DNA of 64,000 nucleotides. It comes from Escherichia coli (GTDB lineage: Bacteria > Pseudomonadota > Gammaproteobacteria > Enterobacterales > Enterobacteriaceae). Positions 7,136 to 8,204 of this stretch are shown here, one piece after another. The DNA is taken from assembly GCF_001677475.2 (NCBI RefSeq), contig NZ_CP015229.1; one strand, given 5' to 3'. Below the pieces are notes generated by a model. The model saw nothing but the letters and a program-made list of their open reading frames with translations, was not told the origin of the DNA and made no database searches. The position numbers and the translations under genes are program-made. Positions within the stretch are counted from its first letter, which is position 1; each line of letters begins with the position of its first letter.

Positions 7136-7158
7136 GTCATCATTTTGTATAGTTTATA

Positions 7159-7184
7159 ACGATCGATACAATCGTATCGATCGT
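7159..7184. promoter_or_regulatory. 11-bp perfect inverted repeat with two GATC sites upstream of com-mom (candidate Dam-sensitive operator or terminator of tfa)
   Basis: ACGATCGATAC-AATC-GTATCGATCGT read directly; located about 75-100 bp upstream of com; phage Mu mom is regulated through GATC methylation upstream of its promoter. Confidence 0.35.
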
Positions 7185-7257
7185 CAGTTTGCATCATCTG
7201 TGATTAAATACCCTGGCCCTCAGGGCTGTCGTATCTGGTTAATACACAGGTGGGATC

Positions 7258-7443
7258 ATGGATGCTGTTCGTTGTAAAAACTGCAATAAATTGCTGTTTA
7301 AAGGAAGTTTTAAGCATATAGAAATCAAATGCCCTCGTTGTAAACGTTACATTGTCATGTCGAGTGCCCGGGAGCATCCCACGGAGCTGTATTGTGGGAA
7401 AAGAGAAGAAATCACGCATCCTTACAAAACCCTGCGTTATTGA
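7258..7443 (+). CDS. com: Com-like zinc-finger translational activator of mom
   Basis: 61 aa, [54 protein letters not shown]..., CxxC...CxxC pattern and size as phage Mu Com; 3' end overlaps mom. Confidence 0.85.
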
Positions 7444-8089
7444 GTATGAAGGCCGTATTGTCGGCTATGGTTCAAGGGAACTGCGCGTTGAAACCATATC
7501 CTGCTGGCTGGCCCGCACAATCATTCAGACAAAGCACTATTCCCGCCGTTTTGTGAATAACTCCTGGTTGCATCTGGGGGTATTCAGCGGACGTGATCTG
7601 GTTGGCGTTCTCCAGTGGGGATACGCCCTTAATCCCAACTCAGGGCGTCGGGTCGTGCTGGAAACGGATAACCGGGGCTATATGGAACTGAACCGCATGT
7701 GGTTACACGACGACATGCCCCGCAACTCTGAATCACGGGCTATCAGCTACGCACTGAAAACCATCAGGTTACTGTATCCATCAGTGGAGTGGGTTCAGTC
7801 CTTTGCAGACGAACGCTGCGGACGTGCAGGTGTTGTGTATCAGGCATCTAATTTTGATTTTATTGGTAGCCATGAAAGCACGTTCTACGAGCTGGACGGC
7901 GAGTGGTATCACGAGATAACGATGAACGCGATTAAGCGTGGAGGACAACGAGGCGAGTATTTGCGGGCTAATAAGGAGCGGGCGGTGGTACACAAATTTA
8001 ATCAGTATCGCTACATCAGATTCCTGAACAAGCGCGCAAAAAAGCGATTAAATACCAAGCTATTCAGGATTCAGCCATACCCGAAGTGA
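7394..8089 (+). CDS. mom: Mom-like DNA modification protein (adenine carbamoylmethylation)
   Basis: Track ORF 7352..8089; no in-frame ATG near the 5' end; in-frame GTG at 7394 inside com gives 231 aa, the length I recall for Mu Mom; com-overlapping start as in Mu. Confidence 0.8.
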
Positions 8090-8110
8090 TCTCACTTAAT
8101 GAATAAAAAA

Positions 8111-8138
8111 GCAGCGGCCAATGCCGCTGTTTCGTTTG
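8111..8138 (+). terminator. Rho-independent terminator downstream of mom
   Basis: GCAGCGGC-CAAT-GCCGCTG stem-loop followed by a T-rich run. Confidence 0.45.
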
Positions 8139-8154
8139 AAGCGCGAAAATTAAA

Positions 8155-8204
8155 GTTTTCGCATTTATCGTGAAACGTTTTCGCGTTTTTCGTGCGCCGC
8201 TTCA
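8155..8204 (+). mobile_element. Mu right end (transposase binding sites R1-R2, terminus ...TTCA)
   Basis: Reverse complement reads TGAAGCGGCGCACGAAAAACGCGAAAACGTTTCACGATAAATGCGAAAAC, which matches the phage Mu R-end sequence as I remember it with one mismatch. Confidence 0.8.

Follow-up and report, generated by a model that had tools for sequence, protein, structure and literature searches.

The com-mom gene pair of bacteriophage Mu chemically masks the phage DNA against bacterial restriction enzymes. This anti-restriction system is textbook knowledge, and among 5,426 complete E. coli genomes RefSeq already labels the two genes in 339, so that one more copy brings no conceptual change; the value of the locus described here is modest and comparative. 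In the reaction catalyzed by Mom, glycine is passed from Gly-tRNA(Gly) to the N6 of adenine, followed by rearrangement to N6-carbamoylmethyl-dA (PMC13219725). According to the same 2026 structure-function paper, the Mom residues R111, S124, D149 and R151 (241-aa numbering) are essential, the variants H58A, Y59A, W48A, Y159A and W181A show a drastic loss of activity, and an HTH-like insertion is needed for activity as well (PMC13219725). The synthesis of Mom is held back at the level of translation, since the GUG start of mom lies within the stem of a translation-inhibition structure, and Com recognizes the sequence CC-N2-3-GAG in a short hairpin just 5' of this structure, a target that was defined by in vitro selection (PMC6483171). 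It is established that Dam and OxyR control mom in Mu (PMC3378877; PMC2909390), and binding of OxyR at the Mu mom upstream region is reported in later papers that cite the original work. The C-box sequences of the Mu late promoters are likewise available (PMC4461284).

Identification of an intact com-mom pair at a prophage right end

A Mu-type com-mom module had been proposed by a first-pass annotation of a 64-kb stretch of Escherichia coli DNA, in the following called the window. This assignment was confirmed by Pfam, with Mom matching PF25680 (E 1.5e-75, model positions 1-202 of 202) and Com matching PF10122 (Zn_ribbon_Com, E 2.2e-7), by the 97% identity of Mom to its Mu counterpart and by the match of Mom to the PDB entry 8bv8 ('Methylcarbamoylase mom') at E 2e-154. 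No NCBIfam model matched Mom, and the single NCBIfam match of Com was under the curated cut-off. The com gene starts with an ATG codon, while an open frame for mom extends over 7352-8089 and contains an in-frame GTG located 50 nt before the end of com. The 231-codon Mom ORF that had been read from a GTG inside com is therefore correct, and its start matches the one given in the literature (PMC6483171). Compared with the Mu operon (Mup54/Mup55, NC_000929), the two genes share their order, their overlap, the mom GUG inside com and their place just inside attR. The sequence after mom differs, being a GC hairpin in the window and AT-rich in Mu.

Position 8204 corresponds to the exact last base of the Mu right end and host DNA begins at 8205, which makes the locus the right end of a Mu-like transposable prophage adjoining host DNA. 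The window covers the right 8.2 kb of this prophage. The left part, with the repressor, transposase, activator and head genes as well as the left end and the 5-bp target duplication, is located beyond the window and would amount to roughly 29 kb if the element is about the size of Mu. Nine uninterrupted late ORFs, 97% identical to tail genes of the prophage in strain RM9088, occupy positions 1-7135. Taken as a whole, the locus is an intact Mu-type com-mom pair with a variant control region (Table 1).

Table 1. Features of the com-mom locus and the adjoining prophage end (positions in the window)
Feature	Position	Strand	Description
OxyR-like operator ATAGTTTATAACGAT-N7-ATCGTATCGATCGTC with both Dam sites	7149..7185	.	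OxyR consensus match, putative
11-bp perfect inverted repeat ACGATCGATAC / GTATCGATCGT	7159-7169 / 7174-7184	.	100% complementary, 4-nt spacer
CATC at the place of the third Mu GATC	7192..7195	.	13 bp after GATC II; register comparison
Conserved GATTAAATACCC block	7203..7213	.	Register comparison and conservation; function inferred
GC-rich palindrome CCCTG-GCCCT-CAGGG	7211..7225	.	73% of positions invariant in type B; folds as RNA hairpin
com	7258..7443	+	CCCC zinc-finger translational activator, 61 aa; ribosome-binding site AGGTGGG 7248-7254
Candidate Com-binding RNA hairpin GUGC-CCGGGA-GCAU	7364..7377	+	CC-N3-GAG in and beside the loop; motif match
Translation-inhibition stem-loop UCCCACGG-AGCUGUA-UUGUGGGA	7377..7399	+	Predicted fold
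mom	7394..8089	+	GNAT-fold adenine N6-carbamoylmethyl (glycyl-tRNA-dependent) DNA-modifying enzyme by family and homology, 231 codons
GC-rich hairpin CAGCGGCCAATGCCGCTG after mom	8112..8129	.	Terminator-like on both strands; also in UMNF18
Mu right end (attR)	8130..8204	+	Near-identical to the last 75 bp of Mu; ends ...GTGCGCCGCTTCA / ...CGTGCGCCGCTTCA / ...CGCCGCTTCA

Mom retains all residues required for activity

The alignment of Mom with Mu Mom is ungapped over 231 aa and shows only eight differing residues, namely Q21R, K28R, Y58W, V123T, V188E, R216K, K225R and V226I. Since the residue numbers of the structure-function paper start at an ATG ten codons 5' of the GUG, the numbers in the 231-aa protein are ten lower, and the residues to be compared are W38, H48, Y49, R101, S114, D139, R141, Y149 and W171 (W48, H58, Y59, R111, S124, D149, R151, Y159 and W181 in the 241-aa numbering). 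All nine are invariant with respect to Mu Mom, and none of the eight differences affects a residue required for activity. The loss of catalytic residues, which the first-pass annotation had named as the finding that would speak against a Mom enzyme, was accordingly not seen in the alignment. The HTH-like insertion (residues about 175-209) is also ungapped and carries V188E (231-aa numbering) as its sole change. With every activity-required residue in place, the enzyme would be expected to generate the same product as Mu Mom, N6-carbamoylmethyl-dA.

Com and the translational switch of mom

Com is less similar to its Mu counterpart (70% identity), but the zinc-binding residues Cys6, Cys9, Cys25 and Cys28 are kept. 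The RNA elements through which Com acts in Mu are conserved as well. The predicted stem-loop encloses GGAG (7383-7386), the ribosome-binding site of mom, together with its GUG start codon (7394-7396), and RNA folding predicts an identical 8-bp inhibitory stem for the window and for Mu. In a comparison of 16 distinct sequences belonging to four upstream-region types, the sequence (A/G)UGCC-NNN-GAGCAU was invariant in all 16 with NNN being variable, and the inhibitory stem was kept in nearly all relatives with a varying loop. Rfam holds no family for the com/mom RNA switch. Both the Com hairpin and the inhibitory stem-loop thus appear to be kept at this locus, and relief of the mom inhibition by Com probably takes place here as it does in Mu.

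The start codon of mom deserves a separate remark, as RefSeq places the start of Mu mom at an ATG ten codons 5' of the GUG. This ATG is a GTG in the window, which replaces A-U by G-U at one pair in the hairpin and agrees with the GUG at 7394 as the real start. The crystallized Mom begins at the GUG-encoded residue (VGKEKK...), and the first ten residues of the longer form are removable and tolerated (PMC13219725). Together, these observations agree with GUG 7394 being the start codon that is probably used.

A conserved palindrome with two Dam sites upstream of com

In the first-pass annotation, an 11-bp perfect inverted repeat with two Dam sites had been noted upstream of com, and we found it exactly as described. 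Its GATC sequences, at 7161-7164 and 7179-7182, form two PvuI-type CGATCG sites that are 18 bp apart. The repeat exceeds what is expected by chance: the 64-kb window contains only four distinct perfect inverted repeats whose arms measure 11 bp or more and whose loop does not exceed 10, compared to 0.13 per window in Markov-1 simulations. Within the prophage part of the window GATC is depleted four- to five-fold (7 sites versus about 31 expected) and occurs only twice in 1-7135, so that the pair in the palindrome constitutes a local cluster.

The first-pass annotation had also envisaged an alignment of Com, Mom and the upstream region to Mu. While Com and Mom align, the upstream region cannot be aligned except for the block around GATC I and II, and no blastn homology to Mu, SfMu or D108 was found 5' of 7268, that is, until inside com. 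The exception is ATAG-N6-ACGATCGA-N10-TCGATCG, which is kept from Mu with GATC I and II, their 18-bp spacing and the ATAG flank being identical. The palindrome is the counterpart of the Mu GATC sites I and II. Because the upstream DNA is otherwise non-homologous to that of Mu, a Dam dependence of this locus is suggested by the conserved motif and not by overall homology.

The two Dam sites lie within a sequence that matches the OxyR consensus ATAGnTnnnAnCTAT-N7-ATAGnTnnnAnCTAT at 14 of the 20 specified positions, the joint best score among about 128,000 window positions. When the same scoring was applied to the Mu mom upstream region, it reached 12-13 of 20, which is below the score of the window. 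We then determined the conservation of this block among 24 distinct sequences with the same type of control region, referred to as type B. In the block 7146-7185, 85% of the positions are invariant. The com coding sequence reaches the same value, compared to 13% at the 3' end of the gene that precedes com and 29% in 7227-7257. Conservation sets in at about 7142 regardless of whether the preceding sequence is a DUF4376 gene, an SGNH hydrolase gene, an IS3 element or a truncated tail-fibre gene, so that the control region moves together with com-mom as a self-contained cassette. The invariance, the cassette behaviour and the OxyR consensus score all indicate that the palindrome is under selection, and judging from the motif, gating of the locus by Dam and OxyR is likely.

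A comparable arrangement is known from agn43 and from the gtr operons of P22 and Salmonella, where GATC is embedded in the OxyR consensus as it is here, such that methylation and OxyR binding would exclude each other. In contrast to the two GATCs of the window, these systems have three or four and show known phase variation.

We consider it highly probable that the locus represents a Mu-type com-mom operon of functional appearance, located at the right end of a transposable Mu-like prophage of E. coli, and that it works in the following way. During lytic growth, com and mom would be transcribed as one mRNA, from which Com would be translated first. By binding to the CC-N3-GAG hairpin at 7364-7377, Com would open the adjacent stem-loop and free the ribosome-binding site and the GUG of mom. 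The Mom protein made in this manner would move glycine from Gly-tRNA(Gly) onto the N6 of adenines in double-stranded DNA, and the rearrangement of the glycine adduct to N6-carbamoylmethyl-adenine would block many restriction enzymes. As in Mu, the host proteins Dam and OxyR probably gate transcription: OxyR would bind to the operator at 7149-7185 as long as the two GATCs are not fully methylated and thereby repress the operon, and Dam methylation would displace it from this site.

Divergence of the remaining control region from Mu

The 122-bp intergenic region upstream of com defines the type B control region, which is present in about 48 of the 5,426 complete E. coli genomes and also in many IMG/VR contigs. 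To compare such regions with each other, the upstream sequences of the window, of Mu and of 34 other distinct loci were placed in an anchored register. The distance between GATC II and the ATG of com is 79 nt in the window and 91 nt in Mu. Mu has three GATCs, whereas the window has two, the place of the third being taken by CATC in the window and in every type B sequence; judged from this register, the third Dam site is lost in the type B lineage. Further downstream, AATACCC (7207-7213) has the same offset from GATC II as AATAACC in Mu, which is the right half of the C-protein dyad. Apart from this AATACCC, a search upstream of com did not reveal the C-binding dyad TTAT-N6-ATAA, the ACCACA -35 element, the T6 run or the TAAGAT -10 element of Mu. 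The place of the Mu -35 element, T6 run and -10 element is occupied by a GC-rich palindrome, which reads CCCTGGCCCTCAGGG in the window (GCCCTCAGGGC in the comparison with relatives) versus GCCCTCCGGGC in most relatives.

Two more distant upstream types (L050 and L052) possess three GATCs together with a CACCATAA(T/C)C C box, and those of L052 are spaced by 18 and 13 bp like the GATCs of Mu. Folding of the com leader did not support a conserved RNA structure, with z-scores of -1.55 for the window and +0.58 for UMNF18. Since the ATAG-N6-CGATCG-N12-CGATCG block and the Com hairpin with its stem-loop have been kept although almost all of the DNA upstream of com was replaced, they are marked as the control parts that are probably indispensable, while the third GATC, the C dyad and the T6-run promoter appear to be dispensable or replaceable.

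Promoter and activator of the com-mom operon

A scan of 7136-7257 predicted neither a promoter-like (sigma-70) nor a terminator-like site, and conservation of the upstream region is lowest in 7227-7257, the stretch that should hold a -10 element. One of three models for the transcription of com-mom is an activator-dependent promoter upstream of com with a diverged site. Candidate activators were sought in two close relatives. In RM9088, for which the whole prophage is available, there is a single gene of the Mor/C family, whose product is 60% identical to Mor and 31% to C. The available UMNF18 sequence (the left part and the right 3 kb only) also contains one such gene (63% to Mor, 32% to C), and no C gene was found in the RM9088 prophage or in the searched parts of UMNF18. 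In UMNF18 the Mor-like gene is located directly before the endolysin gene, and in RM9088 a gene for a secreted 165-aa protein lies between the two. This protein, encoded at the position of C, was considered as an activator and ruled out, as it has no similarity to C and carries a signal peptide. In this lineage the activator is presumably a single Mor-like protein and not Mu C.

The lys and I genes of the relatives are preceded by a Mor box, GCCGGTAAATCCGGC (GCCGG-N5-CCGGC), followed by a T run. When the window and the RM9088 prophage were searched with up to three mismatches, no Mor box was detected upstream of com, and the prophage part of the window gave a single weak match, at 3249-3263 within a gene for a tail fibre. 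The number of 11-mers common to 7186-7257 and the rest of the prophage, with at most one mismatch, was 54 versus about 45 expected by chance. None of these matches was located in another late-gene upstream region, and no shared late-promoter motif was apparent.

Alternatively, com-mom could lack a promoter of its own and be transcribed by read-through from the late tail-fibre operon, which ends at 7135 on the same strand, with the GATC/OxyR block acting as a roadblock or representing a relic of the ancestral arrangement in Mu. The window, unlike Mu, has neither gin nor a G segment upstream of com, and gin was equally missing from the RM9088 prophage and the searched parts of UMNF18, so that com-mom directly follows the tail-fibre operon. 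The absence of any predicted terminator or promoter-like site between 7135 and 7258 and the lack of a Mor box at com, whereas the lys and I genes of the relatives have one, would also be in line with read-through. However, conservation sets in at about 7142 irrespective of the gene in front of it, which points to a self-contained cassette, and a constraint as strong as that on coding sequence does not fit a relic. Transcription by read-through is therefore somewhat unlikely in our view.

A third model assumes a weak sigma-70 promoter over the palindrome, consisting of TTGTAT (7146-7151), a 15-bp spacer that contains GATC I, and TACAAT (7167-7172), which OxyR would occlude directly as at agn43 without the need for a phage activator. 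TAnnAT at 7167-7172 and TTGTAT (CTGTAT at one locus and TTATAT at another) are kept in all type B sequences read, and agn43 and the P22 gtr operon demonstrate that Dam/OxyR switches can work in this way (PMC2909390). Yet the -35 element matches at only three of six positions, the site fails the consensus scan, and the conserved AT at 7171-7172 is equally well explained by the ATAG element of the OxyR consensus. Moreover, if such a promoter were active in fully methylated dam+ lysogens, the toxic Mom would be produced unless it is otherwise held down, and Mu has no promoter at the equivalent place. We regard such a promoter as quite improbable.

We tentatively propose, with less than even confidence, that a widespread E. 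coli Mu-like lineage has rewired the control of the toxic mom gene. Its members would have lost gin and the G segment, the activator C, the core of Pmom and the third Dam site, while the OxyR operator with two GATCs and the Com switch would have been retained and the GC-rich palindrome acquired. If this is true, mom would be expressed through a single Mor-like activator or through read-through from the tail-fibre operon, and the two-GATC gate might act in a manner unlike that of Mu, e.g. as a heritable on/off switch. The lineage is a natural test case for how a lethal gene can be kept silent with a simpler set of activators.

Type B relatives and state of the prophage

The type B relatives include RM9088, UMNF18 and STEC and ETEC strains, in which RefSeq labels the two genes 'Com family' and 'protein mom', and they have the same upstream architecture as the window. 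They further resemble it in the DUF4376 tail-fibre assembly gene directly upstream, the hairpin after mom and attR. The sole near-identical relative is RM9088 (99.5% identity over 7100-7300), the other type B sequences being 82-86% identical. The palindrome of most of these relatives is built from 10-bp arms around a 6-nt spacer (ACGATCGATA-ACATCA-TATCGATCGT), in contrast to the 11-bp arms and 4-nt spacer of the window.

In RM9088, insertion sequences split mom and an IS66 element lies in the early region, which shows that relatives do decay. Such decay in the nearest relative, along with a truncated com-mom copy that is found on a plasmid and the fact that only the right 8.2 kb of the prophage are visible in the window, raises the question of whether the prophage is defective and com-mom an inert remnant that is never expressed. 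Nevertheless, no interruption affects com, mom, attR or any of the nine upstream late ORFs in the window, and the few changes of Mom with respect to Mu (8 of 231) spare every residue needed for activity. An inert remnant is therefore improbable, and a functional-looking operon is the reading that we prefer.

The insertion site differs from those of the type B relatives, as the prophage in the window adjoins a type VI secretion vgrG/Rhs cluster. The interrupted host gene encodes a 176-aa hypothetical protein with a HEMMH motif, was hit 126 nt into its sequence and is located just upstream of the vgrG, DcrB-like and Rhs genes of this cluster. The flank from 8205 to 12200 is 99.3% identical to several E. 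coli chromosomes.

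GATC content and the region before com

The prophage part of the window (1-8204) contains 7 GATC sites against an expectation of about 31, which corresponds to a four- to five-fold depletion, and only 2 of these sites lie within 1-7135. The host part (8205-64000) carries 223 sites versus approximately 218-276 expected and is thus close to expectation. The prophage of the nearest relative, RM9088, is likewise poor in GATC, with between about one third and one half of the expected number.

An extra, third GATC was found at 7254-7257, directly 5' of the com ATG (GGGATCATG). A GATC abutting the com start codon is limited to one subtype, comprising the window, RM9088 and the fetched locus L026, while the other type B loci, which share a com upstream control region unlike that of Mu, carry GGAATCATG in place of GGGATCATG.

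Activator genes, Mor boxes and tail-fibre region

A single activator of the Mor/C family each was identified in RM9088, analyzed as a whole prophage, and in UMNF18, of which the two ends were fetched. In both, the genes lys and I are preceded by Mor-box promoters. The activator gene and lys of RM9088 are separated by a gene whose 165-aa product has a signal peptide.

A tblastn search with Mu Gin over the whole window gave no match, indicating that the gin invertase and the invertible G segment are absent. Instead, two tandem pairs of tail-fibre and assembly genes occupy 2985-7135 on one strand. A weak Mor-box-like palindrome (ACCGGTTAATCCAGC) with 3 mismatches is located on the minus strand at 3249-3263, within the first tail-fibre gene, and its counterpart in RM9088 has 2 mismatches. 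This palindrome may serve as a late promoter within the gene, or it may have arisen by chance.

Features of the window and of the related prophages
Feature	Position	Remarks
First tail-fibre and assembly pair	2985-3764 with 3743-4309	
Second tail-fibre and assembly pair	4254-6545 with 6545-7135	
GC-rich hairpin CAGCGGCCAATGCCGCTG	8112-8129	between mom stop and attR; flanked by T runs on each strand
Small ORF	8606-8962	after disrupted gene
Type VI secretion vgrG	9184-11178	after small ORF
isrA Hfq-binding small RNA and SECIS_3	16931-17059, 19449-19577, 41065-41123	Rfam, host part
Perfect inverted repeats besides that before com (three; each arm 11 bp or longer)	48672-48699, 50492-50522, 52382-52403	host part
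Activator region	L011 7220-8124; L056 16851-17300	RM9088; UMNF18

Right end, insertion site and host flank

The GC-rich hairpin downstream of mom is also present in UMNF18, whereas Mu has AT-rich sequence at this position. The right end of the prophage splits a hypothetical gene of 176 aa, 126 nt into the gene (8205-8609 in the window, with 2375-2905 of the fetched locus L057). Its product carries a metallopeptidase-like HEMMH motif and may act as an effector of type VI secretion; genes for a DcrB-like and an Rhs protein follow vgrG.

The 148-kb E. coli plasmid pEc-CD45-2 (L005) carries a type B com together with a truncated piece of mom, with insertion sequences on either side, which shows that parts of the com-mom module also travel on other mobile DNA.

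Among the Rfam elements of the host part are two copies of isrA and one selenocysteine insertion element, SECIS_3.
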